Both the position numbers and the translations under genes were made by a program. Of a DNA stretch of 64,000 bases, positions 27,887-58,855 are shown piece by piece (position 1 is the stretch's first letter; each line of letters opens with the position of its first letter). The notes beneath the pieces were generated by a model. It was not told where the DNA came from. It did no database searches and saw only the letters and a program-made list of their open reading frames with translations. The DNA comes from Eledone cirrhosa (Eukaryota), in NCBI GenBank assembly GCA_964016885.1, contig OZ024743.1:98642001-98706000 (forward strand), given 5' to 3'.

Positions 27887-28414
27887 GTGTGTATATATGT
27901 ATATATATATAATAATAATAATAAAATGTGGAGAAGGAGCACACGAGTTAGGATATATATATATATATGAAAACAGGGAGAAAAAGACGATTATTAGGAA
28001 GAAAAAATTTTTTTTTCCTTTTTTTTTTTTCCTCTTTTTTCTGGGTTAGAAAATGATTAAAAGAAAATATTTTACTTTGTGTGAAGTGTTGAGGTATTAA
28101 TTAATTTATTTATTAATTAACAATGGCATTTATTTATTTATTTATATATTTAATAATTGTCTATTACCGGTTTCAGCATTTTAATATGATAATAATATGT
28201 ATTGGTGTAGAATGGTGGTGTTGAACATGTTAAGGAAATGGTGCAGAAAGAATAATGTTATTTACAAACAAGGTTTATGAAGTGAAAAGAAAAAAGAAAA
28301 AAAAGGGGCGTAATGTGGAGCATAATAGGGTAATGGGAAATAAAAAATAATGTTATTTACAGGCATATTTCTTGAAGATAAGCAGCTGAAAATGTGTTAA
28401 TATAGCATGAGTGC

Positions 28415-28548
28415 GGAGTTGATCCTTTTCATAATATATTTGGTTTTCTAGAGTTGAGAGTACTAGAGTCATGTAGTAATCTGTCCTCATAAGGATTACT
28501 GCACTCCCTTTATCTGCCTCTTTGATTGTTAGGGTTTTGTCATTTTGA
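28415..28548 (-). pseudogene. Inverted N-terminal PLE RT fragment
   Basis: Minus strand reads QNDKTLTIKEADKGSAVILMRTDYYMTLVLSTLENQIYYEK, which contains the PLE RT IxxADKGxxVVxM motif. Confidence 0.8.
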
Positions 28549-30325
28549 AAAGGCCAAACACTACACACTCCCTAATAACCCTTTACAAAGAAGGCCTTAC
28601 CGACAAGGAATACAACTACATCACCAATTTCAAAAGCAGAACCAGCCTCTTCTATGGTATCCCAAAGACACACAAAAGTGAAGTAATAGGCAAGGGCTGC
28701 AAGCAAGCCACAGACATTTACATCAATATACCCCCTCCTGATGACCTTAAATTAAGACCCATAATAGCAGGTACCACTTGTGAAACCCACCGCCTAAGCA
28801 ATTTCCTAGATATTCTGCTTAAACCTTTCCTAAAACACATAAAAAGTTTCATAAGGGACGACCTTGACATGCTCAACCACCTCCCAACAACACTTAATAA
28901 TGAACTTACCCTACTAGTAACCTTTGATGTCATCAATCTATATTCCAATATCCCACACAACCTCGGTGTAGAGGCAATACAATTCTGGCTTGAAAATTTC
29001 CCTAGTGAACTTCCACAGCGCATCCTTAAAGAATTTGTGTTGGAGAGACTCAAATTCATCTTGGAAAACAATTTCTTCGAATTCGATGCCAAATACTACA
29101 GACAGAAATCTGGGACTGCCATGGGCACGAAAGTAGCCCCTCATACGCCAACCTTGTCATGGGATATTTAGAAACCACTCTCTACCGCAAAGTTCTAGAC
29201 AAATACGGCAACCACTTCTACCAACACATAGAAAAGAACTGGAAGAGATATCTGGACGACTGCTTCATCCTCTGGCATGAAAGTATAGATAGACTGATTG
29301 AGTTTAAAACCCTTCTGAATGGACTCAACACAAACTTACACTTCACAATGGATTACAGCCATGAACAACTCCCTTTCCTCGACATCCTCATCAAGAAAAC
29401 AAACAACAAAATAGAAACAGACATATACTACACACCCACAGACTCCAAACAATACCTCCCATTCAACTCGTGCCACCCTTGACATACCAAAATGGCAATT
29501 CCTTATAACCTAGCCAGAACGATCTGCACATTAGTTTCAGATAAATACACATGCTATACATGACTAGAAGAATTAAAAAACACACTTATCAGCAGAAACT
29601 ACCCACTATCCCTAATCAACAATGGATTCCAACGTGCCCTAAAACTCGACATCCAGGAACTCAGACACCCCAAACCCAGGAATGAACCGCAACAGAAAAC
29701 TCTACCATACATCTCCACACACAACCCCCTCAACAATGAGGCATTCGACACCATCCTCCAGAACATTCCTTTACTAAAAAGAGACCCAAGAATAAACAAA
29801 ATCCTCCAAACACACAACATCATAAAGAGCAAAAGACAACCTAAATCCATAAAAAACATCCTCACACAAGCCAAAATCCAACCAACCCTCACAATGAACC
29901 CTACAGTAAAAAAATGCAGAAGGATAAACTGTGGCATATGCATAAATCTAATAGAAGGTTCAACATTCCATTTTAAACAAGGACAACATTTCACAGTTAA
30001 ACACAACTTTACATGTGCATCTGAAAACCTAATCTATGTTTTGACCTGCTCAGGTTGTCAAGAGCACTACATAGGACAGACATAAAACAGTCTCCGACAA
30101 CGTATGACCGTCCATAAATCACAAATCAAAATACAGGAATACAGAAAAATTGCGTTTAGTGAACATATCGCCAATTGTGCACCCAACCAACATCCAAACT
30201 TTAAAATTTCCCCCATTTACAAATTCATAGACAACGCTACTTTCATCCATCGTACCTATAAGGAAACGTATTACATTAACAAATTCCAACCTCTACTTAA
30301 TGCACTAAACTTCGGACTAAACTAA
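28545..30325 (+). pseudogene. PLE reverse transcriptase + Cys-rich linker + GIY-YIG endonuclease, disrupted
   Basis: Motifs: FYGIPKTHK, LRPIIAG, FDVINLYSNIP, YYRQKSGTAMGTKVAP, RYLDDCF, LPFLDI, CRRINCGIC, NLIYVLTCSGCQEHYIGQT. There is a frameshift near 29140 and stops at 29480, 29561 and 30083. Confidence 0.93.
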
Positions 30326-30894
30326 AACTGGAACAAACAATGAACCAAATCAAAATACATGTCTCTCTAAAGAGTTACCTCCCTAACACCCTACCTAATC
30401 CTTTTTCTTATATAAATTAAATACCATCCATCATTTCTCTCCCACCCTGAATTACCTCCCCCTGCATATTAAGTCTCTAAAAAGGGAAATCATATCAAAC
30501 CCCAGACTACTATTTGCCTCCATCATGGATCAACTAAGCACCCTTGCTATATTAACACATTTTGATCTGCTTATCTTCAAGAAATATGCCTGTAAATAAT
30601 ATAATTTTTTCTTTCACATTGCCTTATTATGTTCCACATTATGCTCCTTTTTGTCTTTTTTCTTTTCACTTCATAAACCTTGTTTGTAAATAACATTATT
30701 CTTTCTGCACCATTTCCTTAACATGTTCAACACCACCATTCTACACCAATACATATTATTATCATCTTAAAATGCTGAAACCGGTAATAGACAATTATTA
30801 AATATATAAATAAATAAATAAATGCCATTGTTAATTAATAAATAAATTAACTAATACCTCAACACTTCACACAAAGTAAAATATTTTCTTTTAA

Positions 30895-33800
30895 GGAGAG
30901 TCTGCTAGAGTCCTTGTAGGAAAAAGTCGGTGCTACAAATTTTTCTGGGTGGGAAATGACGATGGGGTGGATGGTGTAGGTATACTACTAGCTGACAAGT
31001 GGGTAGATAAAGTAATCTCAGTGTACAGGGTAAATGCAAGAATCATTAAACTCAGACTAGTCGTGAATAAAACAATTACCACAATAATATCAACTTACGC
31101 ACCCCAATCGGGGCTGTCAGACGAACTTAAGGATAGGTTTTACGAGTCCCTAATGCACTCTACTGCTCTAACAGACGACAATAATTTCCTAATCATCGCA
31201 GGAGATTTTAATGGACACGTAGGTAAACATTGCGACGGCTTCAATAGAGTACATGGAGGCCATGGGGTTGGCACAAGAAATGAGGAAGGATTCAGACTTC
31301 TAGAATTCTGCGACGCCAATGACATGTCGATATGTAACACAAACTTTAAAAAACCCGACAACCACCTGATCACCTATAGATCAGGAGAGCACTCTAGTCA
31401 GATAGATTTTATCCTCATCAGAGGACGTGACAGATGGACGGTCGTAAACACAAAAGCCTTCCCTAGTGAGGAATGTACATCCCAACATAGCTTAGTTGTC
31501 AGCGACCTCACAGTCAGAACTAGACGAACCTGGAAACAGAGGCCAACCTGGAGAAGAAAGATCTGGAAGCTGAAAGACCCCTCAACCAGTAACAGATTTA
31601 AAGATATTTTGCTCAATGCCTACGACAGTAAAGAAGAACAGATAGAGACATTCAATGTAGAAGAGAACTGGGAGTTCCTAAAAAATAACTTACTAGAGGC
31701 GATGGATGAGGTCTGTGGCTGGAGTAAGACCTCAAGCAGGAGGAGAGTGACTTGGTGGTGGAACAATAAGGTAGATGAGGCAGTTAAGGGTAAGAGACAG
31801 GCATGGAAAGAATGGAAGAACGGGGGAAGCAGGGTACATTACATAGAGACCAAGAGGGAAGCTAGGCGACAAGTATACTTAGCTAGGAGGGAAGCAGAGG
31901 ATAGAAAATTCAAGCATGTTTTGCAACGTGAGGACCAGAAACAGGAGGTGTTCAAGATTGCGAGGAAGTGTGTCAGAGAGAATTGTGATGTCATTGGAGA
32001 GAAGTGTATCCGGAATGATAAAGGTGAGCTTGCCCTCACAAGTGCTGAGAAGAAAGATGCATGGAAGAGTCATTATGATAGATTACTAAATGAGGAGAAT
32101 GCATGGGAAGAAGAGACCCTACCCCAAGTAGACCCTATAGAGGGGCCAGCAGTACAATTCAGCAGCAACGTAGTAAGTAAGGCAATCAAAGATATGAAGA
32201 TGGGGAAGGCAACCGGTCCATCGGGTATAGCTGCCGAGATGCTGAAGGCATCTGGATCTGTAGGTCACACTATAACCACATGTATTGTTAACCAGGTAAT
32301 ACTAGAAGGTGTCATACCAAAAGATTGGTGCAGTAGCATCATTGTCAACTGCTACAAAGGTAAAGGTGATGCACTAGATAGAGGAAACTATAGAGGTATA
32401 AAGCTGATGGACCAGGTCATGAAAGTAACAGAAAGAGTTATAGCAAAGTTGATTAGGGACCGGGTGAAACTAGACGAGATGCAATTTGGGTTTGTACCAG
32501 GAAGAGGCACCACTAATGCCCTCTTCCTTGTCAGGCAGTTACAGGAAAAGTACCTAGCTAAAAGTAAGCCACTCTATCTGGCATTTGTCGACCCTGAGAA
32601 AGCCTTTGACAGAGTTCCATGTGCTGTAATCTGGTGGGCTCTCAGAAAACTAGGAGTAGATGAATGGCTTGTGAAAGCGGTACAAGCCATGTATAGGGGA
32701 GCAGTCAGCAAAGTTAGGATTAGCAATAAGTATAGCGAGGAATTTAGCGTACAGGTTGGGGTCCACCAGGGCTCTGTTCTTAGCCCCCTCCTGTTCATCA
32801 TAGTCCTGCAGGCAATAACGGAGGAGTTTAAGACCGGATGCCCATGGGAACTCCTGTATGCTGTTGACATCGCACTTATAACTGAATCTATGGTAGAACT
32901 AGAGAAGAAATTCCAAACTTGGAAGCAGGGACTAGAAAGAAAGGGTCTCAAAGTCAACATGACAAAGACTAAGGTCCTTGTAAGTAGGCGAGAAAACAGA
33001 ACCCAGATCCCCTCAGGGAAATGGCCTTGCTCAGTATGTAGGAAAGGTGTAGGTAGGAACTCCATTCTCTGCCCTAAATGCAAACAATCGGTACACAAGA
33101 GATGTAGCGGGATCTCAGGAAGCTTAATTAAGAATGTAGGCTTCACATGCAGCAGCTGTGCTAGGACAGCAAGCAGCAAACAGCCACAGGAAACAAGTAC
33201 CACCAATCTCTGGGAGGGCTCTGTAGAAACAGTAGACAGCTTCTGCTACCTAGGTGACCTAATTAGCAGCGGAGGTGGGTGTTCAGAAAGTACAATAACT
33301 AGGGTAAGAACGGGATGGAAGAAGTTTAGGGAACTACTACCACTGCTAGCTGCAAAAGGCTTCTCCCTCAAAATGAAAGGCAGACTGTATGATGCATATA
33401 TCCGAACAGTGATGTTACATGGTAGTGAGACCTGGGCGCAGAAGGTGGAAGAATTACGTAGATTAGAGAGAAACAAAGCCTGCATGCTCCGATGGATGTG
33501 TAATAGTAATATACGCGAACGACAAAGCATAAATGAATTGAGAGAGAGACTGAGCATAAGAGGAATCAAATGCTGTGTGCAGGAGAGGCGGCTGCGTTGG
33601 TATGACAGCTGCATAAAAAGGTGCAGAGCACTAGAAGTCGATGGAAACCGCGGAGTGGGGAGACCTAAGATGACCTGGGATGAGGTGATAAAAGCCGACC
33701 TTACCCAATTACACCTCTCAAAGGCGATGACACACGATCATGACCTCTGGCGTCACGCAGTAATACAGAGTACCCGACCTCCCATGGGTACAAGCTGAAG

Positions 33801-34094
33801 CATATAGACAATATGCCCCCACACCCTCCCACTGCAAGGTGGTCGTGGAGGTGCCACAGCAAAAAAAGCACCCAGCCCACACTGTAAAGTGGACGTGTAG
33901 GCGCCACGAAAAAGCACCCAGCACTCACTGTAAATGAGGTTGGTGTTAGGAAGGGCATCCAGCTGTAGAAATCAAGCCAAATCAGTTCCTGTATGAGCAA
34001 GGCATGGTCAGCCGACCAGACACTGCCCACAACAGGACAACCCGTCTAACCCATGCTAGCGTGGAAGAACGGACGTAAAACGGTGATGATGATG
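30895..34094 (+). mobile_element. RTE-clade LINE, family A, 5'-truncated within the APE domain
   Basis: Single long APE-RT ORF, 3'UTR and (GAT)n tail. It splits the PLE pseudo-LTR at TTTTAA|TCATTT. Confidence 0.93.
30949..33798 (+). CDS. RTE polyprotein (APE endonuclease, RT, PHD-like Cys cluster); open frame but probably inactive
   Basis: 949-aa ORF with IAGDFNGH, QIDFIL, QFGFVPGRGT, GVHQGSVLSPLLF. The catalytic YADD reads YAVD, and an 8-aa segment (GHVMRMKD in the other copies) is missing after RLRWY. No true start codon. Confidence 0.8.
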   Translation: MGNDDGVDGVGILLADKWVDKVISVYRVNARIIKLRLVVNKTITTIISTYAPQSGLSDELKDRFYESLMHSTALTDDNNFLIIAGDFNGHVGKHCDGFNRVHGGHGVGTRNEEGFRLLEFCDANDMSICNTNFKKPDNHLITYRSGEHSSQIDFILIRGRDRWTVVNTKAFPSEECTSQHSLVVSDLTVRTRRTWKQRPTWRRKIWKLKDPSTSNRFKDILLNAYDSKEEQIETFNVEENWEFLKNNLLEAMDEVCGWSKTSSRRRVTWWWNNKVDEAVKGKRQAWKEWKNGGSRVHYIETKREARRQVYLARREAEDRKFKHVLQREDQKQEVFKIARKCVRENCDVIGEKCIRNDKGELALTSAEKKDAWKSHYDRLLNEENAWEEETLPQVDPIEGPAVQFSSNVVSKAIKDMKMGKATGPSGIAAEMLKASGSVGHTITTCIVNQVILEGVIPKDWCSSIIVNCYKGKGDALDRGNYRGIKLMDQVMKVTERVIAKLIRDRVKLDEMQFGFVPGRGTTNALFLVRQLQEKYLAKSKPLYLAFVDPEKAFDRVPCAVIWWALRKLGVDEWLVKAVQAMYRGAVSKVRISNKYSEEFSVQVGVHQGSVLSPLLFIIVLQAITEEFKTGCPWELLYAVDIALITESMVELEKKFQTWKQGLERKGLKVNMTKTKVLVSRRENRTQIPSGKWPCSVCRKGVGRNSILCPKCKQSVHKRCSGISGSLIKNVGFTCSSCARTASSKQPQETSTTNLWEGSVETVDSFCYLGDLISSGGGCSESTITRVRTGWKKFRELLPLLAAKGFSLKMKGRLYDAYIRTVMLHGSETWAQKVEELRRLERNKACMLRWMCNSNIRERQSINELRERLSIRGIKCCVQERRLRWYDSCIKRCRALEVDGNRGVGRPKMTWDEVIKADLTQLHLSKAMTHDHDLWRHAVIQSTRPPMGTS

Positions 34095-34384
34095 AATCAT
34101 TTCCTAACCCCAAAAAAGAGAAAAAAATAAAAAGGAAAAAAAAAATTTTTCTTCTTAATAATCATCTTTTTCTGCCTGTTTTCATATATATATATATATA
34201 TGTATAAATAAATTTCAAAAGTCAATAATGGAGTAACTGAACTGATAATATGTTTTTTCTCCACAATTGACGAAATACTCTAGCCTCTTTAAAACAACCG
34301 TAGATGAATAAATAAATAATAATAATAATAATCCTTAGTCTTATTGAATTTTGAATTATAAATTCTCTGCTACTATAACTGTTT

Positions 34385-34452
34385 GTTCCTGAAGAATGAA
34401 GGGTAAAAATATGTATTGAGCTTAACTCATCTTACCAATGAAAATAGTGAAC
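34385..34452 (+). ncRNA. Degenerate type-I hammerhead ribozyme motif (PLE remnant)
   Basis: GTTC-CTGAAGA-[GGTAA...TTACC stem II]-GAAA-ATAGT-GAAC. Stem I pairs, but stem III and the cleavage site are eroded. Confidence 0.4.
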
Positions 34453-34466
34453 TATTACACTATAAC

Positions 34467-34506
<40 letters not shown>

Positions 34507-34513
<7 letters not shown>

Positions 34514-34908
34514 GTTTGAATTTGTAAAGCCAAAACAATGCAGGTATGGACATAGAATAAAAAATGCAAATGCAAAAGATATTGTTGACAATTAGTCTTT
34601 TACCTTAGATTTATTTAAATGCCCTTAATTTTCGAGATAATATCTCTTCTTCGGAGGGAAGTAAAGTGGTTAAACCAGTGTTCTAAATTTAGAACACTGG
34701 TTTAACCGCTTTACTTCCCTCCGAAGAAGAGATATTATCTCGAAAATTAAGGGCATTTAAATAAATCTAAGGTAAAAGACTAATTGTCAACAATATCTTT
34801 TGCATTTGCATTTTTTATTCTATGTCCATACCTGCATTGTTTTGGCTTTACAAATTCAAACGTTTATACCTCATTACACAATGCTTCAAGTGAACTATAA
34901 TTTCCTCC
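34507..34908. mobile_element. 362-bp near-perfect palindrome plus a 40-bp unpaired tail (PLE pseudo-LTR remnant) in (TA)n
   Basis: Arms of 181 bp, centre at AAA|TTT 34687/34688, no spacer, one mismatch seen. The tail runs 34869-34908. Confidence 0.85.
34717..34753 (+). ncRNA. Minimal type-I hammerhead ribozyme motif, mirrored on the minus strand at 34622-34658
   Basis: CCCT-CCGAAGA-A-GAGAT/ATT/ATCTC-GAAA-AT-TA-AGGG. Stem I is CCCT/AGGG, stem II is GAGAT/ATCTC, and a palindromic AATT replaces stem III. Confidence 0.65.
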
Positions 34909-34921
34909 TATATATATATAT

Positions 34922-35712
34922 AAGAAAGTAAGTCCATAGAATCATTTGATAAAATATATACAGTATTTCTTCTCCCAATCAGCATAATCAACCACATAAA
35001 AAAATCATTTAAACGAGGTTATAAGTTTAAAATGTACCTATGAAGAAATAATAGATAAATAAATGATAGCTTTCCATTCGCGATCAACAGCAACAGATTT
35101 AGTATTTCTGAAAGCCTATAGAAATTGACTAGACATATAGTTAACCATACATAATTAGGTACAAAATCAAAGTTAGAAGAAAAAAATGTACATAAACATA
35201 CCAAAATCATATCTCTACCTCCGAGGATTTCATTTGCTTTTTGGAAATATCCGATCATCGATTAATTAATGAGTTTCGAAATCATCAGGAGACAAACTCA
35301 ATTGGACAAAGATTTTTCTTAAATGATCCCCGCCAGAAACAAATTCAAAATGGCTAAGAATTGTCACATAGCCAGTGGTCAAGTCAGAAAGCTTGTGATT
35401 GGTGCCTGACAGCGAGTAGGCTGGTTGCTAGAAAGCACAGCCGAATACTGCCTAAAGTTTTACTCAACCTTACGGGAGTATATAAGATATAGAAGTTTAA
35501 TACACATAAACTAGACAGAGCCATAGATATATATATATATATGTTTTTGGCAACCATTTGATTTTGTATCTAATTATGTATGGTTAACTATATGTCTAGT
35601 CAATTTCTACAGGATATCAGAAATACTAGGTAAATCTTCTGTGGCTGTTGATCGCAAATGGAAAGCTATCATTTATTTATCTATTATTTCTTCATAGGTA
35701 CATTTTAAATGA
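34922..35712. mobile_element. Element with ~150-bp inverted repeats (35027-35172 / 35556-35709), unclassified, possibly PLE-derived
   Basis: The arms are diverged reverse complements, with an extra unpaired segment on the left and (TA)n flanks. Confidence 0.55.
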
Positions 35713-36773: not shown

Positions 36774-36804
36774 AATATATATATATATATATATGGAGGC
36801 AGAT

Positions 36805-37139
36805 GGAGGCACATGGCTTAGTGGTTAGAGCATTGGCCTTGCAATCGAAAGGTTGTGAGTTCAATTCTCAGACTGGGTGATGTGTTGTTTCCTTGAGCAA
36901 GACACTTTATTTCACATTGCTCCAGTTTACTCAGCTGTAGAAATGAGATGATAGTGCCTGGGGTCCATATCATTCCACTGCAAAGTGGTTGTGTAGGTGC
37001 CACGGCAAAAAAAGCCAGCACTCACTGTAAATGAGGTTGGTGTTAGGAAGGGCATCCAGCTGTAGAAATCAAGCCAAAATCAGTTCCCGTCCCACCTTTG
37101 CAAGCAGGGAAAAAGCGGACGTAAAAATGAAATGATGAT
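36805..37139 (+). mobile_element. tRNA-derived SINE family 1
   Basis: Same A box, B box, CORE-like middle and RTE tail as 25360-25701. Confidence 0.87.
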
Positions 37140-37380
37140 ATATATGAAAATAGGGCAACAAGTGAATATGGTGCCACACCACTATGTCAGAATTTGTGGT
37201 AGAATATGAGAAGGAATCAAGATAATATTCAACCACTCTCAGACATGAGTCTACATGTTAAAACATATCTGATTGACTTCCAATTCCAGAGTCAGGTTCG
37301 ATCATTAATAGATTGTTCCTCGAGCTGATTGACAGTGAAACATATGATGCAATACTGATTCTTTATTCCTTTATATCATT

Positions 37381-37722
37381 TCATCATCATTTCATTTTAC
37401 ATCTGCTTTTTCCCTGCTTGCAAGGGTGGGACGGGAACTGATTCTGGCTTGATTTCTACAGCTGGATGCCCTTCCTAACACCAACCTCATTTACAGTGAG
37501 TGCTGGGTGCTTTTTTGCCGTGGCACCTACATGTCTACTTTGCAACGGAATGATAGGGACCCCAGTCCTATCATCTCATTTCTACAGCTGAGTAAACTGG
37601 AGCAATGTGAAATAAAGTGTCTTGCTCTGCTCAAGGAAACAACACATCACCTGGTCTGAGACTTGAACTCACAACCATTCGATTGCAAGGCCAATGCTCT
37701 AACCACTAAGCCATGTGCCTCC
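37381..37722 (-). mobile_element. tRNA-derived SINE family 1
   Basis: Reverse complement of the copy at 36805-37139. Confidence 0.87.
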
Positions 37723-38522
37723 ATATATATGTCAATATTGTTAATTTTCATCTAAACAAATCAAATCCTGATACAAGACAAACTTCTATTTCTGCTCCAT
37801 TTCTGTCAAACAAATTCCTAAAAATATTACAAAATTTGTTTAGCATATTTGTCTGATCTTGTCTGGTTGTATTTGATATTTTGGTGAACAATCTCAAATT
37901 CTTCTACTTCCTTTATGTGTCTTCTACTTAAACTCTTTTAATAATTATTTTAATCCTCTTGTTTTTTAAAAAGTTTAATATTCGATGGGCTTCTTCTTGT
38001 CTTTGACATTTGTGTATTTTGATTTTATAGTTTCTTTATTACCTTTCCTTGTGTTTACGTTGTTGTGTATATTTTCTTTGTCGCCATGATACTACAAAAC
38101 AATGATGGAAAGACACACATTTGTGGTATGTATGTGTGCATGTAATGTATGTAGGTAGGTAGGTAGGTAGGTAGGTGTGTATGTATGTACATATGTATGT
38201 ATGTGTTGAAAGAAACCTTATATCACATGACATTCTAATGAATTTGAATTTGTAATCAAACATGTAAAATAAAATATATAAATAAAATTCTGAAGAGATT
38301 GACACAAATGTCAAAAATAATCAAACATGAAATCTCAGGAAATTATATGTTGCCAAAAATGAAATAAATAACATAAAAAAGTTATAACTCAAGTTGAAAT
38401 ATAGTTAAAAAGTGATCTATGAAATAATGTAATACATCACTTTTCAGTTGGTATGGTGATAAAAATTATTTTATTACTGACAGCAGGACTCACAGACATT
38501 TATCTTTATATATATATATATA

Positions 38523-38798: not shown

Positions 38799-39060
38799 TA
38801 TAGTAAAATAAAATAAAACAAGGACGAGTGGTTACTCCTTCATTACGGTTATTGGTTGGTGACGCGCGTTTCGCGACTGATCAGCTCAAGGTTTGATCTG
38901 TATCGATCTAGCCCAACTCTGTAATCCACCACTCGTCCTTGTTTTATTTTATTTTACTATAATATACTCTGTCTAGCTCTACACCTCGACACTGAAGTGA
39001 ACCTAAACATCGAGTGGTCACCCGGGTGAACTTTCAGTAACTCCAAGTTACACACCTAGA
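38799..39060. mobile_element. Short PLE-like remnant: 34-bp inverted repeat, half hammerhead motif, unpaired tail
   Basis: 38799-38832 and 38928-38961 are inverted. The minus strand between them has GAAA-CGCGCG-TC. (TA)n flanks. Confidence 0.55.
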
Positions 39061-39070
39061 TATATATATA

Positions 39071-40119: not shown

Positions 40120-40424
40120 TATATATATATATCTTTGGTTGTGTCAAGGATTGTTTTATGATCTGATGGAGTGAAGAGGGCTTATATGTCTAAAGTGTCC
40201 CCACCTAACCACACAAGTCACTGAATATCATGTTGGTGCTCACCAAAAGTGACTCAAGTCAGGAATCATTGTTGTCTCTGATACCAATTAATGGGAACTA
40301 GTTGATGGGCAAGTGTATAAGGAACCATAAGATCAGGTGCTCTTGTTCAGCTATCAGTTCTGAAAACATATTGTACTATATGCTTTGCCCCTCTAATATT
40401 ATTCACACCTCCAATATTATGTGT

Positions 40425-41767: not shown

Positions 41768-41788
41768 CCCCCCCCCCCCCCCCCCCCC

Positions 41789-47138: not shown

Positions 47139-47801
47139 GCCATATATATACATAGGTTTCTTTTGACTAGACATAAAGTCAATAAATTTGCAAAGTAGGA
47201 ATATAGTTTAAATAAGTCTGATATATTATTGGGGACTGAAATAGGATAAGCTGAAGATTATTACAAAATAAGCTTCAGTACTGTTTATTAAGTAAATATT
47301 AAGTGTTTAAATGATAAAAGTTTACTATGTTTATAAAAATAAGAGTAGAAAATATGTGAAATATATGAGAAATAGTTGCAAGTTGTGTGGTTTAACCCTT
47401 TAGCATTACTTTATATATACTATTGTATTTTCACAGTAAAGGCTTTATTTCTGAAAACTATCTAACATAATATCGAATCTATTAGATTTTGATATTATTT
47501 ATTTTGAGAACAATACCTTAACATTAGTATGAATAGCTGGTCACAGCTGTTTTGAACAGAAAGATGTGAGAGAATTCTGGCCGGATATGGCTGGTTTGAA
47601 TGCTAAAGAGTTAAAAGTTTGTTTTGTGATACACTGAGCAAGTTATTTTCTACTATAGCTGAAAATTGAGCAATGACAAGTGAGTATCTATCTATCTATC
47701 TATATATATAAAACTGTAATATCAAAACAGTACTCGCAGAAGTACTGAATGAAACAACTTTCATAAGAAAAGACAGACTGTATGGAAGCCTAGCAATTAT
47801 C

Positions 47802-49085
47802 ATGAAGAACGAATCGGCGGCAAAAAAATGTGCTTTGTCACCGATTCGTTCGAAAAATTTCACCTTTTATCCATCTTATATGGGAAAAAAAACTCAACGC
47901 ATATGGCTGGATGCAATGATGCCAGATGTGGACTACTGCTGGCTCATAGCTGGCTTCATCGATCCAGTGAATGACAACGTGATTTCCATTGGGAAAACCA
48001 CAGGCAATGCGTTCAGTGGAACAGGTATAGAGCTGGTAGTACAAATGAAGCCTGAACGCATCGCCCAAATACCCGACAGAATCCTATTAGAGGACCACGG
48101 GTATATAAACATTAGCGTGGAGGGGAGAAGGCCGTCCTGCCATATCTGTGCAGGCAGAGGGCACCTGAAGGCCGCTTGTCCCCAACTCAACAAAAAGAAA
48201 ACCCTGCTACCAACACCAGCTCCACCACCACCACCACAACAGATAAACAAACAACAAAACTCAGTCCCACCCAACCCGTCCCTCAGTAACACCACAACAC
48301 CACCACAACACAAACAGTCACAACACATTACCCCAAAACAAAATACAGGCCCACCCAACCTCTCACTCAATAAAACAACACAACCACCGCAGACACAACA
48401 CACAACACAGTCTAACATAGTGACATCCATCTCCCCCACAAAGAAAACCAACACGGAAACATTACCAGCAAACATACCTCTTCCCTCCAACACTGAAGAT
48501 AACCCAACGAATTCGGAGGAAGAAACGGAGTCCTTCAGACAGATTAAAAGGAAAAAAAGAAAACATGTGCAAAACACACAAGGACAAACAACCCCCACCC
48601 AAATCGCAACACAATCTAACAAAACAGAAAACACCCCTCCAGCAACAAACAAAACCAAACCTGCCCCTCCCCTCTTCGAAACACTCACACCATCGGAAAA
48701 AAAGACATTACACTATACTTACATCAACAGAAACAATAATAAATTAAATGAACTCATATACAATAATCCTTCGGTACAAACCGAAGGTGTAAACTTTGTT
48801 TCGTCAGAAAACCACCCACATTTAAAACTAATAAAAATCCCAATGAACCTCTACCAAAAACTAAAAAAGGATTTTAAGGAGGACGTAGGACCACCCTCTG
48901 TCAAACCCATAAACCGCGTCCTACTAAAAAGCTTTCCCCCTCCCCTTCCCCTCCCCAACACAACTCCAAACACCCCAACCCCACCACACACTGACGACCC
49001 CACACCACCACAAGACACCCCTTCACCCAACACCCCCGACCCCATGGAAGTCGTGCAACCCGAACCCCGGGAAGCGGAAAGGTAG
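47802..49085 (+). CDS. LINE ORF1 protein (gag-like, CCHC zinc knuckle, Pro/Thr/Gln-rich tail)
   Basis: Contains CHICAGRGHLKAAC (CX2CX4HX4C). The frame is open for 28 more codons back to the 5' junction at 47718, so the true N-terminus is probably missing. Confidence 0.85.
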   Translation: MKNESAAKKCALSPIRSKNFTFYPSYMGKKTQRIWLDAMMPDVDYCWLIAGFIDPVNDNVISIGKTTGNAFSGTGIELVVQMKPERIAQIPDRILLEDHGYINISVEGRRPSCHICAGRGHLKAACPQLNKKKTLLPTPAPPPPPQQINKQQNSVPPNPSLSNTTTPPQHKQSQHITPKQNTGPPNLSLNKTTQPPQTQHTTQSNIVTSISPTKKTNTETLPANIPLPSNTEDNPTNSEEETESFRQIKRKKRKHVQNTQGQTTPTQIATQSNKTENTPPATNKTKPAPPLFETLTPSEKKTLHYTYINRNNNKLNELIYNNPSVQTEGVNFVSSENHPHLKLIKIPMNLYQKLKKDFKEDVGPPSVKPINRVLLKSFPPPLPLPNTTPNTPTPPHTDDPTPPQDTPSPNTPDPMEVVQPEPREAER

Positions 49086-49118
49086 GTCTCTACACTCTCC
49101 TTTGGCTCTACCGCCCAC

Positions 49119-52100
49119 ATGGATGTGTTAAGAGTAGGATGTTTGAATGCACGTGGCCTGGGCTCAACTTGGAAGCAAGCAAAGCTTCTAAATGACCTCA
49201 GGTCATGTAGTATAAATGTAATGGTTATCTGTGAGACTCGAATCAGCGTCATGCGGCAGCTGGCCTCCACCTTCGATGACTTTGAGGTGCATGCATCTCT
49301 CTGTCAACCTGGAGGTGGGGGTGGGGTTGTCGTGCTGCTGCAAAAACACCTGGGTCTTGCCGTACAGGTTGTGCACTCGGACCCGGAGGGTCGTTTGTTG
49401 GTGCTAGACGTTGGCAGTAGTGAAAGTGCGGCCTTGAGACTGGTCGCCGTCTACTCCCCTTTCGGAGCTGAACGGCCCGACTTCTTCCAGCGTTTGGAGA
49501 CTTTTCTGGGAACGTCGCGTTCCCTGCTTCTAACGGGGGATTGGAATGACATCCTGGATGCACGTTGGGACTATGCAGGAGCATGTCCTAATAGAGGGGG
49601 GTGTAACAGCCTCAAGGGGTTACTCGACCGTTTTAACTTGGTCGATAGATATCGACTAGATTTTCCAACTGTGCCTACCTGGACTTGGAGAAACCACAGT
49701 GGTCAATCTAGATCGTACTTAGATAGATTCTTAGTTAGAAGTAAGGATAGGGACATATTAAGCTGTCCAGAAATGCGCACGGTTGGCTACACGGATCACA
49801 AATTAGTGACCTGCGTGGTCAATCTCGAGAAAACACATAGACAGGGTCCCGGTTACTGGAAACTTAATTTGTCTTTACCGGCAAAAGAGACTTACAGAAA
49901 CCGGATTAGCAGATTAGTTAAGGAGAGGTTGACGGGTGCAATCGTCAATAACCGATGGTGGGCATCTCTCAAAAGAGAGATTAGAACAGAATCAATAAGT
50001 TATAGCAAGATGTTAGCTGCCAATAGGAATAGAAACGAGAAAGAATTAACAGGTAAATTAGAAGAGGCAATCAAGAGCGAAAATGTGGCCAGAGTGCTGG
50101 CATCGAGGACGGCCTTGAACCAGTTTTTCGATGCAAAGCATGAAGGCTGCGTCATTCGAAGTAAAATACGTGCTCTAGGTAATGAGGGGGCCAAAGCCGT
50201 TGGATGGGCCCGCGTGACAGAAGCTAAAAGTGGAAATCGATCCACCATCCGGTCGTTGCAAGACGAAGATGGACGAGTGATCCGGGAGCCTAAGCAGATG
50301 TGCGAGGCCTTTCAAAAGCACTTTGCCCGATTGTTCGGGGGAGGCGAGGGTCCGGGCCGGGGCGTGGATTTCGGTCCATACCTCGACGGCCTGCCGCGTC
50401 TCTCGAACAAAGAGGCAGAGTCCTGCGAGGGACCAATCTCGGCTGATGAGATCGGAGATGCGCTGAGCCAATGCAGCAGACGCAAATCTCCAGGTCTCGA
50501 TGGTATACCTTACGAACTTTATTTAGCAATGCCGGTCTTCTTCTCCGAACTCCTCGAAGCGGTCTACTGCAATTGGCAGCAGAACGGGAGAATTCCTTGT
50601 TCTGTAGCCAAGGGCGTAGTCACGCTGGTGAGGAAGGACGAGAACAAGGGGGATAGTATAAATAATTTTCGGCCCATAACCCTGCTAAACACAGAGTTAA
50701 AGATTTTGGCCAAGGTGTTAGCAAAGAGGTTGGCGCTTGTCGTGGGTAGCCTGGTGGGAGATGCGCAGACATGTGCTATCCCATCCAGGTCCATTCACGA
50801 TAACCTCCACCTCATGCGATACATCATAGAGAGGGTTGGCAACAAACCCGGCTTCGGTGGGGCCCTGATCAACTTGGATCAGTCTAAGGCCTTCGATAGG
50901 GTCGACCATGGTTACCTGGATGCGGTGCTAGCGGCGGCTGGGTTCGGTCCTGTTTTCAGAGGCTGGATCACTGCCCTACATAGCAACCACATCTGTTCTA
51001 GGATCAAGGTGAACGGCTACCTTTCGAAGCCGTTCGAAATCACACGATCCATTCGACAGGGGTGCCCTCTCTCCTCCCTTCTGTACGTATTGACTCTCGA
51101 GCCTTTACTGAGGAAGTTGGAGTTGTTGCAGGGTATCCCCCTGGAACCAGGATTGAGCAAAGCGGTGTCGGCCTACGCCGATGACGTAACAGTAATGGTA
51201 TCAACCGACTCGGAGATCGAGGCGATCGGTACCTTACTGGAGGAGTACGAAAGGTTGTCAGGAGCGAAACTGAACCGGGAAAAATCCATCGGGCTGCAAC
51301 TCGGAACGTGGAGAGGCAAACCGATGCCTCCTGACGGTGTCGTCGGACACTGGACGGAGGGCCCGGTAAAGTTGCTTGGGGTCTGGTTTGGACCGGACCT
51401 CCAGGTGGAAAAGAACTGGAACGAGGTTACGAACAAGGTGTTTGCACTAACCCAGAAATGGGCCAAGTGTAAGCTGTCCCTAAAAGGCCGGGCGGAGGTG
51501 GCGAACATTTACATAGCGTCCGTCACTTACTACCGCCTGACTGTCGTGCCTTGCCCTAAGGAAACACTCACCACCATGGAACGCATGCTCTTCCAATTTC
51601 TTTGGAAGAAGCGTCCTCCTATGGTGAGAAGATCCATCTGCTGCCAACAACCTTCGAAAGGAGGGCTGGGGACGCCGTGGTTGATGATGCGTAGGCACGC
51701 ATTAAGGCTACGGCACCTACAGGTATTCCTCACTGGTCAACCGGTGTGGGCTCCGTTCGTGAAACGAGCCTTTCCGAGACTCGTCTCGCTCACCGAGCTA
51801 CAGTCCTGGGTCAAGCAAAGATCCGGAAAACTGGGAGACTGGCACACTGAGTGTGCTCAGGCGCTCAGGGCTCTCTGGCAAGCGGGCCGGGCCATCGGTG
51901 GAGAATCCACCTCATCATTCTATAGAGGGCTGGTGGCTAGCAGGGGCGATGACACCCTTGGAGAGTCGCTGGACATGGAAGAAGACGAACTGGCCAGCCT
52001 GTTCGGTAGGACTTTCGGCCCAGGACCAATGGACAACTTCCAGAAGTCACTGGCCTGGCAGTGCTACCGAGGGGCTCTACCCGTTCGAGAGAGGCTCTAC

Positions 52101-52556
52101 AGACACGGGCGCCCGGGCAGGGATCCCTCGAAAAAGATTTGCCCTAGATGCGTGCGTCACGAAGAAACCGTAGCGCACGCATTGGTGCAATGTCCGGGCG
52201 TGGCTGATCTGTGGGGCTACGCCGAACAACTGCTGTCGCGGGTGGCGCCGATTAAATTGACCGCCGAGTCCGTGATGACAATCAAACCGCCTCCCCTCTT
52301 CACAAAGGAAGCAAAGGCGGTTTTTCTGTGCGTAATAGCCATGTTGAAAGAGGTTGTTTGGTGGACACGATTGAAAGGTCTGAGGTCAGGCAACTTCCTC
52401 TCTGGCCATAGTCTGGTCTACTTCTTCCGATATCACTTCGGAAGAAGGATAAGAATGGAGAGAGAGGTGCTTGGCCACAGGCAGTTTTATGAAAGGTGGG
52501 TGATAGTGGCGAGAATGGCTCGTGTAAATGGGCCTTCTCTGTATACCATCCTGTAG
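49119..52556 (+). CDS. LINE ORF2 protein: APE endonuclease + reverse transcriptase + C-terminal CCHC finger, intact
   Basis: 1145 aa with LNARGL, CETR, GDWN, LDRF, TDH, GPGYWKLN, SPGLDG, FRPITLLN, LDQSKAFDRV, RQGCPLS, AYADD and CPRC...ETVAHALVQC. Confidence 0.95.
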   Translation: MDVLRVGCLNARGLGSTWKQAKLLNDLRSCSINVMVICETRISVMRQLASTFDDFEVHASLCQPGGGGGVVVLLQKHLGLAVQVVHSDPEGRLLVLDVGSSESAALRLVAVYSPFGAERPDFFQRLETFLGTSRSLLLTGDWNDILDARWDYAGACPNRGGCNSLKGLLDRFNLVDRYRLDFPTVPTWTWRNHSGQSRSYLDRFLVRSKDRDILSCPEMRTVGYTDHKLVTCVVNLEKTHRQGPGYWKLNLSLPAKETYRNRISRLVKERLTGAIVNNRWWASLKREIRTESISYSKMLAANRNRNEKELTGKLEEAIKSENVARVLASRTALNQFFDAKHEGCVIRSKIRALGNEGAKAVGWARVTEAKSGNRSTIRSLQDEDGRVIREPKQMCEAFQKHFARLFGGGEGPGRGVDFGPYLDGLPRLSNKEAESCEGPISADEIGDALSQCSRRKSPGLDGIPYELYLAMPVFFSELLEAVYCNWQQNGRIPCSVAKGVVTLVRKDENKGDSINNFRPITLLNTELKILAKVLAKRLALVVGSLVGDAQTCAIPSRSIHDNLHLMRYIIERVGNKPGFGGALINLDQSKAFDRVDHGYLDAVLAAAGFGPVFRGWITALHSNHICSRIKVNGYLSKPFEITRSIRQGCPLSSLLYVLTLEPLLRKLELLQGIPLEPGLSKAVSAYADDVTVMVSTDSEIEAIGTLLEEYERLSGAKLNREKSIGLQLGTWRGKPMPPDGVVGHWTEGPVKLLGVWFGPDLQVEKNWNEVTNKVFALTQKWAKCKLSLKGRAEVANIYIASVTYYRLTVVPCPKETLTTMERMLFQFLWKKRPPMVRRSICCQQPSKGGLGTPWLMMRRHALRLRHLQVFLTGQPVWAPFVKRAFPRLVSLTELQSWVKQRSGKLGDWHTECAQALRALWQAGRAIGGESTSSFYRGLVASRGDDTLGESLDMEEDELASLFGRTFGPGPMDNFQKSLAWQCYRGALPVRERLYRHGRPGRDPSKKICPRCVRHEETVAHALVQCPGVADLWGYAEQLLSRVAPIKLTAESVMTIKPPPLFTKEAKAVFLCVIAMLKEVVWWTRLKGLRSGNFLSGHSLVYFFRYHFGRRIRMEREVLGHRQFYERWVIVARMARVNGPSLYTIL

Positions 52557-52771
52557 GTAAAGAAGTAAAGGAGAGGGGAGCACCTTCTCCATGTGCTCCC
52601 CGGGCAAAGGATTGCACACTTTTTCGGGGGTGTGTGCAACCCCCATCACGTCCCCTCCCTTTTGAGGTTATTTTCGATTATTTTCATGTTACACCCTTTT
52701 TACTCGATTATATGTAAACTCCCCCTTTGTATTTGTCCCTTCTTTTTATGCCTTTATGGTAAATAAAGAAA

Positions 52772-53123
52772 TCTATATATATAAAACTGTGGTTGTCTGT
52801 CTGTCTATCGATTTTTGGCACACATCTCCTCTTAGAATCTCTCACGGAATTGCACCGAAATTGCTATACTTGTACATTGAGCCCTAGCGAAGACATCGGA
52901 AAAAAAAGAATTTCAAATTGACCCACCCTATGTGACGAAATCGAATATAATGTATCGATTTTTGAGCGTAAGTGATCAGTTATTTCCCTTTGTTCTGTTT
53001 ACATTGAGCGTCTGCGTGCAAAAATTAAAAAAATTACGCTGGCTTTCTCAGCGTTTAAAATGACATTAACACAATACACGATTTAAAGACTACGTAAAAC
53101 AAGCCTTTTAAAACAATATTTTT
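52772..53123 (+). mobile_element. Partial copy (5' ~350 bp) of a non-autonomous Helitron
   Basis: Near-identical to the first ~350 bp of the copy starting at 53125 (two substitutions seen). Confidence 0.85.
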
Positions 53124-53124
53124 A

Positions 53125-54018
53125 TCTATATATATAAAACTGTGGTTGTCTGTCTGTCTATCGATTTTTGGCACACATCTCCTCTTAGAATCTCTCACGG
53201 AATTGCACCGAAATTGCTATACTTGTACATTGAGCCCTAGCGAAGACATCGGAAAAAAAAGAATTTCAAATTGACCCACCCTATGTGACGAAATCGAATA
53301 TAATGTATCGATTTTTGAGCGTAAGCGATCAGTTATTTCCCTTTGTTCTGTTTACATTGAGCGTCTGCGTGCAAAAATTAAAAAAATTACGCTGGCTTTC
53401 TCAGCGTTTAAAGTGACATTAACACAATACACGATTTAAAGACTACGTAAAACAAGCCTTTTAAAACAATATTTTTACTTGAAAACAAGTCTATTTAAAA
53501 ACTACTTAAAACAAACAAATATTTCGTAAAAAAAAGCAAAAATTATATAAGTTTATATAAAATATATGTATCTGTAAATTTCGTTAGGCGTGCAGACAGA
53601 CAGTCGTGCAGAGAGGTGATATAGGCGTGCAGACAGACAGTCGTGCAGAGAGGTGATATAGGCGTGCAGACAGATAGTCGTGCAGAGAGGTGATATAGGC
53701 GTGCAGACAGACATAACTGATAATTTGGTTACGCTAATGTTTTTCTCTGCGTTGCAGTGTTTACATTTTCGATCTTTGTTAATAAATAACCAGTGCAGTT
53801 TCTATCCCCAGCATCCTCTTTTGTTATAACATTCGGGTTATCGTTATGTTTTCTTAACTTCATAAGGCATATTGTTGATTGAGGGAATATTAATCAAAAA
53901 CACCACATGCAAGTCTGCAGAGTAAACACTACAGTTTTTAAGCCAAGAAAGAAACTTAACATTGTAACTTTAACACAGCTACTGAGCGACCCCGAGCAAC
54001 GCCGGGCTTTACTGCTAG
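53125..54018 (+). mobile_element. Non-autonomous Helitron, complete
   Basis: Starts A|TCTATATATATAAAA, has (GTCT)n near the 5' end, a subterminal hairpin CCCG-AGCAACGC-CGGG and a CTAG|T end. An internal 37-bp repeat occurs three times plus a partial at 53585-53714. Confidence 0.88.
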
Positions 54019-54801
54019 TATATATATATATATATATAAAACTGTGGTTGTCTGTCTGTCTATCGAATTTTGGCACACATCTCCTCTTAGAATCTCTCAC
54101 GGAATTGCACCGAAATTGCTATACTTGTACATTGAGCCCTAGCGAAGACATCGGAAAAAAAAGAATTTCAAATTGACCCACCCTATGTGACGAAATCGAA
54201 TATAATGTATCGATTTTTGAGCGTAAGTTATCAGTTATTTCCCTTTGTTCTGTTTACATTGAGCATCTTACGTAAAAAATTACGCTGGCTTTCTCAGCGT
54301 TTAAAATGACATTAACACAATACACGAACATTCGAACACTAAGCTTCCGTTTTGCTTCATTTCCATTTAAAAGCATTTTAAAACAATATTTTTACTTGAA
54401 AACAAGTCTATTTAAAGACTACGTAAAACAAGCAAATATTTCAGGCGTGCAGACAGATAGTCGTGCAGAGAGGTGATATAGGCGTGCAGACAGACATAAC
54501 TGATAATTTGGTTACGCTAATGTTTTTCTCTGCGTTGCAGTGTTTACATTTTCGATCTTTGTTAATAAATAACCAGTGCAGTTTTTATCCCCAGCATCCT
54601 CTTTTGTTATAACATTCGGGTTATCGTTATGTTTTCTTAACTTCATAAGGCATATTGTTGGTTGAGGGAATATTAATCAAAAACACCACATGCAAGTCTG
54701 CACAGTAGACACTACAGTTTTTAAGCCAAAAAAGAAACTTAACATTGTAACTTTAACACAGCTACTGAGCGACCCCGAGCAACGCCGGGCTTTACTGCTA
54801 G
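54019..54801 (+). mobile_element. Non-autonomous Helitron, second complete copy, head-to-tail
   Basis: Same body, hairpin and CTAG|T end. The 5' TC is replaced by (TA)n and there are fewer 37-bp units. Confidence 0.88.
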
Positions 54802-55338: not shown

Positions 55339-55388
<50 letters not shown>

Positions 55389-55540: not shown

Positions 55541-56120
55541 CTCAAGTATGTGAGATTGTGTGTTGTCGACCTTAGCCAGTGTTGCTCTATGATTATGAGA
55601 GACAAGATAATGGGAATAATTAAATTGACTCAATATCAGAGCTATGTAACAAATTATAAAGTAAGAAGAAATAATAGACACAGATATATACCTATTTTTT
55701 CTTCAATGTCCCGACTGTACAGTTTCACTGGTCACTATGCTTTCAAGCAAACACTATATACACTTTCAGTCAACCTTACCACCCCTCTGTAGCCTCTGTA
55801 TCATACTAATATCCCCTTCTGCCTTCTGAGATATTTTTCACTGCTACAAGGGATTTAGGTCCCTTTTTTTGACCGGTGTATCACGTGATAGTATCTCCCT
55901 CCGCCTTTTTGAGATTTTCTTGCCTGCTACAGACGTGTCTTGAAGCTCTCTTTCCCTGAGGTGTTCCCTTGAAAAGCTGGCTTACCTCACAATAATGTTA
56001 CATCTCTATGATATAAGATGTTTGCATAGTGACCAATGAAACTGTACAGTCGGGACATTGAAGAGAAAATAGGTATATATCTGTATCTACTATTTCATCT
56101 TACTTTATAATATGTTATAT
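55541..56120. mobile_element. PLE pseudo-LTR remnant with ~98-bp inverted repeats and a hammerhead
   Basis: 55643-55740 and 56024-56120 are inverted, with an unpaired extension on the left. Confidence 0.75.
55962..56057 (+). ncRNA. Type-I hammerhead ribozyme motif, U3-A8 core variant
   Basis: TGTTCCC-TTGAAAA-GCTGG...CCAAT-GAAA-CTGTACAG-TC-GGGACA. The inverted copy preserves CCAGT, which restores stem II pairing. Confidence 0.72.
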
Positions 56121-56121
56121 A

Positions 56122-57210: not shown

Positions 57211-57227
57211 ATATATATATATATGTT

Positions 57228-57394
57228 GGAACAAGTATGACCCCGAGTATTCTGCAGTCCAGAATTATCCGTCGAAACGGCTTGAGCTCTGCCGTCGGGG
57301 TCATACTTGTTCCTATTACCCACTCTACTACCCTAAGTATTGAGTACTTTGGTGCGTTATGGTCCATCTGGTTCTTTACCACATTTCCTTCGTT
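57228..57394 (+). mobile_element. Short PLE-like remnant: 19-bp inverted repeat, half hammerhead, ~80-bp tail
   Basis: 57228-57246 and 57295-57313 are inverted. The interior reads GAAA-CGGC-TTGAGCTCT-GCCG-TC-GGGGTC. (TA)n flanks. Confidence 0.6.
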
Positions 57395-57644: not shown

Positions 57645-57812
57645 ATAAAGGTAGCATCGACTCCAGTACAGAACTGGTACTTTTTTTATCGACCTCGAAA
57701 GGATGAAAGGCAAAGTTGATTATAGTGGGATTTGAACTCAGAATGCATAATGTGGTAGGACGAGTACCATAAAGCATTCTAGCCAACGTCTTAACAACTC
57801 TGCCAATTGGCC
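57645..57812 (-). mobile_element. Degraded SINE family 2
   Basis: CTGGTACTT...TATCGACCTCGAAAGGATGAAAGGCAAAGTTGA...GGGATTTGAACTCAG...CTCTGCCAATT. Confidence 0.7.
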
Positions 57813-58645
57813 TTTTATATGTGTGTGTGTGTATGTATATGTGTGCACGTATGAGCATGTGTGTGTATGTGTGCGAGTGTTTGTGTGTATGTGTATGAGT
57901 GTGTGTATGTGTGTGAGTGTGTGTGTGTGTGTCTGATTGTTTGTGTGTGAATGTTTGTGTGTGATTATAATTACTTAATTAAGTACCAGATCTGGAAAAA
58001 ACAAAGTCATGATCTTGATATGATCAACTAAACCCCTTCAATGCCCCAGCATGACCGTACTCCCATGACTGAAACCAAGAAACATATTTACAATGTACTT
58101 TGACTAGATGTCCTTCAAATATATCAGTTTATCTTTCCCAAACAATCAAATGTTTAACAATCAAATATTCTTCTTTGATATCAGTGAATTTCAAAAAGCC
58201 AAAAAAACTCTTACATTGCTTGTAATCTTCTGTTTCTTGTAATCTTATTTCTATCCCTAGAGAAAAAACTCTCAATATTTGATTCTGATAAACAAAATAT
58301 ATCTTTGTAGTAAGATTTCTGCCTCATGACTGTCATTTGAGTACACAAACGTTGTTTTTTTTTTCTATCTATCTCAAATTTTTTCCCTTGTAACCAAAAT
58401 TTTTTAATTTATATAATTTGAAGTGTATTTATCTATCTTGGTTGAAGTTTTCTTTCTAGTTTTATATATACACAAATACGAATGTTTATACATGCACTTC
58501 TATCTTTATATGCATATAGTATAGGCAATTATGTATACATGTCTAGTGAACATTAATAGGGAAGAGGTTAATATATTCATATACATATATATAATTATAT
58601 ATCATCATCATCATCATCATCATTTTACGTCCGCTTTTCCCTGCT

Positions 58646-58680
<35 letters not shown>

Positions 58681-58729
58681 ATATATATGTATATATATGT
58701 ATATATATATATATATATGTATATATGAC

Positions 58730-58855
58730 ATAACAGATTAAAGTTTAAGCAAAGAATTGCTGCTTTCACCCAGAAGATCCCGTTAAGAGTGAAAGCAGTG
58801 ATTCTTTGCTTAAACTTTAATCTGTTATTTTAATAAATATTTGCTCTACGGTTCT
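58730..58855. repeat. 40-bp inverted repeat with 19-bp spacer and short tail (possible PLE remnant)
   Basis: 58730-58769 and 58789-58828, 2 mismatches, next to (TA)n. Confidence 0.6.

Follow-up and report, generated by a model that had tools for sequence, protein, structure and literature searches.

Inserts in the window

We analysed 64,000 nt of Eledone cirrhosa DNA (assembly GCA_964016885.1, contig OZ024743.1, positions 98,642,001 to 98,706,000 of the forward strand; this whole stretch is called the window below), an AT-rich and repeat-dense piece of animal DNA. Eight inserts, labelled I1 to I8, total approximately 6.4 kb, lie in two patches, and are described here for their relationship to Penelope-like elements (PLEs), retroelements that encode a reverse transcriptase (RT) and, in the endonuclease-bearing (EN+) families, a GIY-YIG endonuclease. 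I1 and I4 contain remains of PLE coding sequence, and the other six have no open reading frame (ORF). The inserts and their parts are listed in Table 1.

A sequence-only reading of this DNA had proposed that unrelated inserts share one plan, in which an inverted repeat, a hammerhead motif, and an unpaired tail stand between two (TA)n runs. The inserts proved real, with inverted arms in seven of the eight (all except I4) and a one-sided tail in six (I1 is tail-less, and I4 has no arms that could define one), but a near-complete minimal hammerhead was found in three only (I2, I4, and I5) and the whole five-part plan in two (I2 and I5). I1, I3, and I6 retained the 3' half of the hammerhead and lacked a sound 5' box. 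I7 and I8, which had been named as possible members, possessed arms and a one-sided tail, but no motif in either of them passed the descriptor described below. The combination of an inverted truncated copy and a one-sided tail was present in all six ORF-less inserts (I2, I3, and I5 to I8). A comparison detected no sequence shared among the eight inserts, which bears out the claim that they are unrelated, and each of the six palindromes that had been named was located at its insert. Direct repeats of an insert were not found within 24.7-64 kb.

Table 1. Inserts I1 to I8 and their parts, in window coordinates
Feature	Position	Strand	Basis or remark
I1, whole insert, arms ~470 nt	27969-34184		
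I1 left arm, inverted 3' untranslated end	27969-28425	-	Sequence comparison with right arm
I1 left-arm hammerhead 3' half	28165-28174		Motif pattern
I1 inverted ORF piece with DKG motif	28425-28559	-	tblastn E 4e-8, 49% identity
I1 putative 5'-truncated, broken PLE ORF (RT, linker, C-terminal GIY-YIG)	28557-30322	+	Homology and Pfam
I1 3' untranslated region	30323-30894	+	
Long interspersed nuclear element (LINE) splitting the I1 right arm (AP endonuclease, RT, PHD finger)	30895-34094	+	
I1 right arm, outer end	34095-34184	+	Flush with (TA)9, no tail
I2, perfect head-to-head palindrome of two 181-nt arms, 40-nt right tail (34869-34908)	34507-34908		Arm comparison
I2 predicted minimal type I hammerhead	34717-34753	+	One deviation; mirror at 34622-34658 on -
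I7, ~150-nt inverted arms, ~104-nt left tail, internal (TA)8	34922-35712		Arm comparison
I3, 34-nt arms, 95-nt loop, ~98-nt right tail	38799-39060		
I3 half motif GAAA-CGCGCG-TC	38861-38872	-	Decayed 5' box near 38903-38911
I4, whole insert, no arms	39071-40119		
I4, putative Hydra-type PLE endonuclease end of 81 codons (CxxC, E, N, CxH)	39071-39316	+	Homologue alignment
I4 predicted type I hammerhead	39955-40067	+	Descriptor, two deviations (one private)
I5, ~95-nt arms (55647-55740 and 56024-56117), 283-nt loop, ~105-nt left tail	55541-56120		
I5 predicted hammerhead	55965-56055	+	One deviation; U3-A8 core variant (TTGAAAA)
I6, 19-nt arms, ~80-nt right tail	57228-57394		
I6 3' half motif with 4-bp stem III	57274-57296		5' box absent; palindrome is the stem III loop
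I8, 40-nt arms, 19-nt loop, ~27-nt right tail	58730-58855		No hammerhead motif

Hammerhead motifs and TA flanks

Hammerheads were searched for with a descriptor built from published minimal-hammerhead features, in which any core base was free to deviate, against a null of 1000 dinucleotide-shuffled versions of the 3,268 nt searched. At one deviation, the descriptor matched I2 and I5 (2/8), and at two deviations it added I4 and, weakly, I1 (4/8); none of the 1000 shuffles reached two or four inserts, respectively. The 3' half motif was present in 4/8 inserts against a null mean of 0.78 (P = 0.002, 1000 shuffles), and it also occurred 12 times in the remaining 32.9 kb. Single motifs are insecure on pattern alone because an earlier, looser descriptor produced at least one match in 14% and 27.5% of 200 shuffles. 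A descriptor tailored after the motifs had been seen (3/8 inserts, null 0/600) was not relied on, and a motif-like stretch outside the inserts, at 34389-34460, was rejected because its stem I is unpaired. An Rfam scan of the window returned no hammerhead among 31 matches at E<=5, and in fold energy the isolated motifs had unremarkable z-scores.

As had been proposed, (TA)n runs were present at most insert ends (weak to the left of I5 and to the right of I8), but they are not specific to PLEs, because inserts that we partly presume to be of the LINE, short interspersed nuclear element (SINE), and Helitron-like classes abut TA runs as well. TA-flanked inverted repeats also arise without PLEs: at 36795-37730, two tRNA-derived composites with SINE and LINE tails lie in opposite orientation and form a long inverted pair between TA runs. 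With 43 TA runs of at least 8 nt in the 40 kb from 24 to 64 kb, such pairs and the matches of the looser descriptor to shuffled sequence would fit the whole plan being an artefact of cutting repeat-dense DNA at TA runs and picking out the palindromic pieces. We consider this explanation very improbable in view of the PLE ORFs, a GAAA box restored at the family level, inverted arms that are 92-100% identical over 34-470 nt, and nulls of 0/1000. It is largely refuted for I1, I2, I4, and I5 and may apply to I7 and I8 as far as their reading as ribozymes is concerned.

Coding remains in I1 and I4

The ORF of I1 is damaged by a frameshift near 29130 and by in-frame stops. Its protein showed 58-66% identity to full-length RT/GIY-YIG homologues, P0004 among them, and the closest named RT matches were proteins of Octopus sinensis (68%) and Mytilus (65%). 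A CX4CxxC linker stands between the RT and the endonuclease (29915-29941). The Pfam GIY-YIG match on 30086-30319 (E 0.0011) is below the cut-off and collinear with the ends of the homologues; the GIY-YIG score of homologue P0006 was E 1.1e-5. Linkers of the CX2-5CxxC type are assigned to Neptune and Nematis (Craig 2021, PMC8557442). Judged by these sequence features, I1 is a putative broken EN+ PLE of the Neptune/Nematis type, an assignment that makes no choice between the two.

The inverted ORF piece on the left side of I1 corresponds to residues 121-165 of P0004 and directly abuts the inverted 3' end. The left arm matched 30527-30894 at 95% identity (369 nt) and 34095-34184 at 92%, the two parts of the right arm being separated by a LINE that was inserted later than I1. 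The matches to this LINE in a homology search were 44-53% identical, and we take it to be RTE-like. Along the arms (28057-28425 versus 30527-30894), the outer 247 nt are 99% identical and the inner 140 nt 86%, and this step in identity points to either two templates or subsequent homogenisation.

The 3' half of the hammerhead is intact in both I1 arms, reading GAAA-CCGG-TA at 30777-30786, and a 5' box was recovered only at two deviations, as a weak match approximately 95 nt upstream. Four of four relatives of I1 (L003-L006, 38-47% identical to P0004) bear a 3' minimal hammerhead, located 187-318 nt past the ORF and with the palindromes ACGT, TATA, CATG, and TGCA; in two of these loci a TA run ends the locus 52-55 nt past the hammerhead. 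Because these distant relatives all carry the complete motif, GAAA-CCGG-TA in I1 is likely a hammerhead remnant. The four loci are contigs in bacterial genome bins and likely represent host contamination, and two metagenome loci (L001 and L002), which are short, RT-only, and without a usable 3' end, were excluded from the count. No related loci were found in viral contigs for two queries. The hammerhead of L005 (2161-2193, +) has the U3-A8 core variant, as in I5.

The I4 peptide had 175 homologues in an exhaustive search and no matches in a word-index search. The residues W, W, C, L, C, E, N, E, C, and H were invariant across 13 aligned sequences (I4 and 12 homologues), and most of the longer homologues display a CxC..CP linker. 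A CxxC-E-N-CxH end defines the Hydra-clade endonucleases (Craig 2021, PMC8557442), and we compared I4 by eye with section 11 and the Fig. S7 text of that source. I4 appears to be the end of a Hydra-clade PLE, with the CxCX5C linker, RWK, and the DKT region truncated away in this copy.

The predicted I4 hammerhead consists of a 6-bp stem I, the box CCGATGA (C instead of U at core position 4, U4C), an 8-bp stem II with a long loop, and a CAATTG palindrome. It lies approximately 640 nt downstream of the endonuclease end and 58 nt from (TA)6; the TA runs that flank I4 are at 39060-39070 and 40120-40132. The GAAA box reads GATA in the window copy. To the segment 34440-40140, which covers I2, I7, I3, and I4, contigs or reads of four sequencing runs were aligned. 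At position 40052, the A of the GAAA box accounted for 136,801 of 136,861 depth in run X1 (113 contigs), GAAA was found in 37.9 of 37.9 depth in run X5 (4 contigs) and in 180/408 raw reads of run X20, and run X8 did not cover the position. These counts indicate that GATA is damage private to the window copy and that other copies of the family restore GAAA.

Insert I2 and the U4C core

The arms of I2 are 99% identical and loop-less, and the insert lies between (TA)20 and (TA)7. Its motif comprises a 4-bp stem I, the box CCGAAGA (again U4C), an extra base, a 5-bp stem II closed by G-C, and GAAA-AT-TA. At 34622 and 34753, which mirror each other, the window differs from every run X1 contig aligned there, and because the two arms share this private variant, both were copied from one template. 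In a record from another organism, the I2 arm and tail are contiguous (34761-34911).

These features bear on whether the palindromic ORF-less inserts could be miniature inverted-repeat transposable elements (MITEs) or fold-back DNA transposons that target TA, with hammerhead-like motifs arising by chance. The MITE class is present in the window, because the element at 27216-27395, which lies inside a palindromic LINE 3' end, has flush terminal inverted repeats (TIRs) of approximately 42 bp and a duplicated CTAG (or TA) target; it carries neither tail nor hammerhead. The 12 half motifs in the 32.9-kb background and the motif-less I7 and I8 also agree with such an origin. However, in all six ORF-less inserts one arm always continues into a tail of 27-105 nt, which is at odds with TIRs flush with both ends, and other copies have the tail directly after the arm. 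Together with the private variant common to both I2 arms and the complete motifs in I2 and I5, which exceed chance, these observations make a MITE origin improbable.

A C at core position 4 occurs in both I2 and I4, which are unrelated in sequence. U4C was found in none of the 34 rows of the hammerhead table in File S2 of Craig 2021. Among 40 of 612 variant rows, none showed a U4 reversion at 34722 or 39962, a hint that C may be the majority base at position 4. U4C is known from a viroid, in a variant whose activity in vitro is much reduced (PMC3088659), the only natural occurrence of U4C or CCGA found in the literature consulted; the supplements of Cervera 2014 or Lunse et al. 2017 may already hold it. 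The shared U4C core of I2 and I4 may be new.

Abundance of the inserts

In run X1, unique contigs had a depth of 10.8, and the summed contig depth, which is no copy number and is read as orders of magnitude only, reached 161,393 in I2 (34753), 16,074 in I7 (35614), 189,673 in I3 (38848), and 136,861 at the I4 motif (40052). All four inserts examined are therefore high-copy repeats, three to four orders of magnitude above single-copy depth. No link between I2, I7, or I3 and a PLE ORF was found among 40 of 612 variant rows. The depth of the I4 body was 1,002-4,691 and thus far below that of the motif, indicating that I4 is strongly 3'-biased.

These depths could also be read as a sign that the ORF-less inserts are non-autonomous families of fixed length (solo pseudo-long terminal repeats (pseudo-LTRs) or retrozyme-like units of 150-400 nt) moved in trans by PLE enzymes, which would be compatible with a PLE origin. 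Close to the 5' boundary of its hammerhead, I4 shows a depth increase of approximately 50-fold, from 2,554 at 39825 to 136,861 at 40052, and a single contig of another copy spans the arm, loop, arm, and tail of I3 (38807-39023) with 38 differences; the literature describes non-autonomous PLE derivatives. Nevertheless, heavy 5' truncation gives a steep 3' bias too, bins of 190 nt are too coarse to define a sharp 5' boundary, and the window contains no tandem array of hammerhead units, the defining trait of non-LTR retrozymes. We regard this explanation as possible but the less likely one. With similar reserve, we tentatively suggest that several non-autonomous PLE families of approximately 10^4 copies, which are barely more than a hammerhead-bearing terminus, may exist, and that U4C (CCGANGA) may be fixed in at least two unrelated families and missed by standard descriptors and Rfam.

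Features of the remaining inserts

The I5 motif has a 4-bp stem I and GAAA-CTGTACAG-TC, and its stem II contains one mismatch, at which the base in the inverted arm would pair. A strand-switch joint at 38807/38966 (3 contigs) demonstrates that, in other copies of I3, the arm on the motif side leads into the tail. I7 has two core boxes 4 nt apart on the minus strand (35278-35288) and no stem II; GAAA-GC-TA in its arms was rejected as a motif, as 35660-35663 varies among other copies. The inverted arm of I6 (within 57228-57313) begins 2 nt before the predicted cut site and is unique among the inserts in this. Inverted copies starting at the ribozyme cut site were rejected as a general rule, because the junctions of I1, I2, I3, and I5 lie approximately 28-250 nt away from it.

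Other elements in the window

A U14/SNORD14 small nucleolar RNA-like match was found at 41081-41172 (+) with 48.6 bits (E 3.7e-7); the gathering score of 64 was not reached, and the alignment includes boxes C and D and both antisense elements. An apparently intact, TA-flanked non-LTR element at 47712-52773 (+) has two ORFs of 457 and 1156 aa with endonuclease, RT, and zf-RVT domains, and we assume it to be L1/Tx1-like. It is followed at 52774-54800 by a presumably Helitron-like repeat, present as three partly truncated copies in tandem, which start in a TA run and end in CTAGT. Long tandem arrays, as read from the sequence, occupy 1-24730, 41770-43060, 43580-44780, and 44960-47140, with units of approximately 39, 41, 3, and 20 nt, respectively.

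Discussion

We propose that several families of endonuclease-bearing PLEs, two of which show coding remains, probably gave rise to the inserts as 5'-truncated insertions that are now dead, and we give this reading a probability of roughly 80%. By analogy with published systems, a GIY-YIG endonuclease would nick a (TA)n tract, and the RT would copy the RNA from its 3' end, usually halting early. The same molecule would then be copied a second time, over a shorter length and in inverted orientation, by fold-back or template switch, so that the two 3' ends would be joined head to head, and the tail would be extra 3' sequence retained on one copy only. Because the hammerhead is located in the 3' pseudo-LTR, it would be carried along as a passenger and be whole, half, or absent depending on the truncation point and later decay. 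In active tandem elements, the hammerhead would be expected to cut multimeric RNA as a dimer through its palindrome; read-through RNA of head-to-head copies is predicted to form a long hairpin hiding the hammerhead.

Several observations weigh against this reading. Six of the eight inserts are ORF-less, and no tie of these to an autonomous element was established; I7 and I8 are without a passing motif, and I1, I3, and I6 are without a sound 5' box. Four tails measure 80-105 nt versus the published 30-40, the TA flanks are shared with other repeat classes, and the summed depths do not translate into copies. The family base at 34753 would break the outer stem I pair of I2, leaving 3 pairs, unless its partner co-varies, and no co-varying partner for it was found among 40 of 612 variant rows. 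In folding predictions, stem I had a probability of <=0.002 in single arms of I2 and I5, and with both arms folded together all ribozyme pairs of I2 and I5 had probability 0. The I4 stems reached 0.55-0.99 in a 123-nt fold and 0 in 190- and 220-nt folds. As the motif stems of I2, I5, and I4 are lost in longer predicted folds, the window copies are unlikely to be working ribozymes in situ.

The architecture agrees with what has been published on EN+ PLE insertions, in which an inverted 5'-truncated copy yields flanking inverted repeats, a tail of 30-40 bp stands at either end, and a 3' hammerhead and a (TA)n target are present (Craig 2021, PMC8557442); inverted pseudo-LTRs with an optional 31-bp tail and junction palindromes have also been reported (Arkhipova 2013, PMC3846280). 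The inserts share with these the head-to-head inverted copy, the single-end tail, the junction palindromes, the 3' hammerhead, and (TA)n. They differ in that none of the eight has a tandem pseudo-LTR and that six are only 125-790 nt long. Unlike Neptune and Nematis PLEs, I1 is broken and keeps the hammerhead 3' half only.

Octopus PLEs of this kind are known: Hydra-1_Obim of Octopus bimaculoides, which has a hammerhead, and three Octopus Naiads are all associated with (TA)n (Craig 2021, PMC8557442). I4 resembles Hydra-clade PLEs, Hydra-1_Obim among them, in its CxxC-E-N-CxH end, its TA flanks, and its 3' hammerhead with a T left unpaired on either side of stem II. In contrast, its endonuclease end and hammerhead differ by eye from those of Hydra-1_Obim, so that it belongs to a different family, and the spacer of approximately 640 nt before the motif, the long stem II loop, and the U4C core also set I4 apart.

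Minimal hammerheads number in the thousands per genome and are mostly solo, and opposite-strand pairs 100-700 bp apart have been recorded, as has a U3-A8 variant; positions 15.2-16.2 are palindromic, and activity as dimers is low (Cervera and De la Pena 2014, PMC4209133). The window motifs match the minimal metazoan PLE hammerheads of that source in the short stem I, the extra base after A9, the palindromic 15.2-16.2, and, in I5, U3-A8. They deviate from them in the C at position 4 of I2 and I4, and G10.1-C11.1 is kept in I2 only. Non-LTR retrozymes are head-to-tail tandem hammerhead units (Li et al., bioRxiv 10.64898/2026.07.22.740005; PMC7229834); the inserts are like them in being short, non-coding, and probably PLE-derived with a type I hammerhead, but they are single or head-to-head and not tandem. 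For O. vulgaris, 31 PLE families have been annotated as recently active, with ribozymes unmentioned in the text covered (PMC13282606), and 235 hammerhead matches were reported for the giant squid (PMC6962438).

From the density and diversity of the inserts in 31 kb, the sequence-only reading had further envisaged a large community of microsatellite-targeting, ribozyme-bearing PLEs that ORF-based annotation would overlook. Several unrelated, microsatellite-associated families were indeed recovered, but they fill no more than the two patches described above, and the idea that they are new or hidden is not supported, since the plan corresponds to published PLE anatomy, solo minimal hammerheads are already reported in thousands per genome, and (TA)n-targeting, hammerhead-bearing octopus PLEs are already catalogued. 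The expected link to PLE ORFs was obtained within the window for I1 and I4 but not for the six ORF-less inserts, whose PLE origin is probable by their architecture. Stem covariation among copies gave a divided picture, as GAAA is restored in I4 copies, the outer stem I pair of I2 is altered on one side among 40 of 612 variant rows, and the I5 arms differ at one base of stem II. The inserts add unnamed PLE families, the structure, ribozyme, and TA preference of which have already been published, octopus examples included.

Short palindromic ends of this kind are easily mistaken for MITEs or for repeats of unknown type, or recorded as false microRNA hairpins. If the tentative proposal of abundant terminus-only families is true, the eukaryotic hammerhead load of the genome would be far above annotation and U4C would be a working retroelement variant. 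If U4C is fixed and active, broader descriptors would be required in hammerhead searches, and the short high-copy ends would serve conveniently as substrates in studies of how PLEs make inverted copies.

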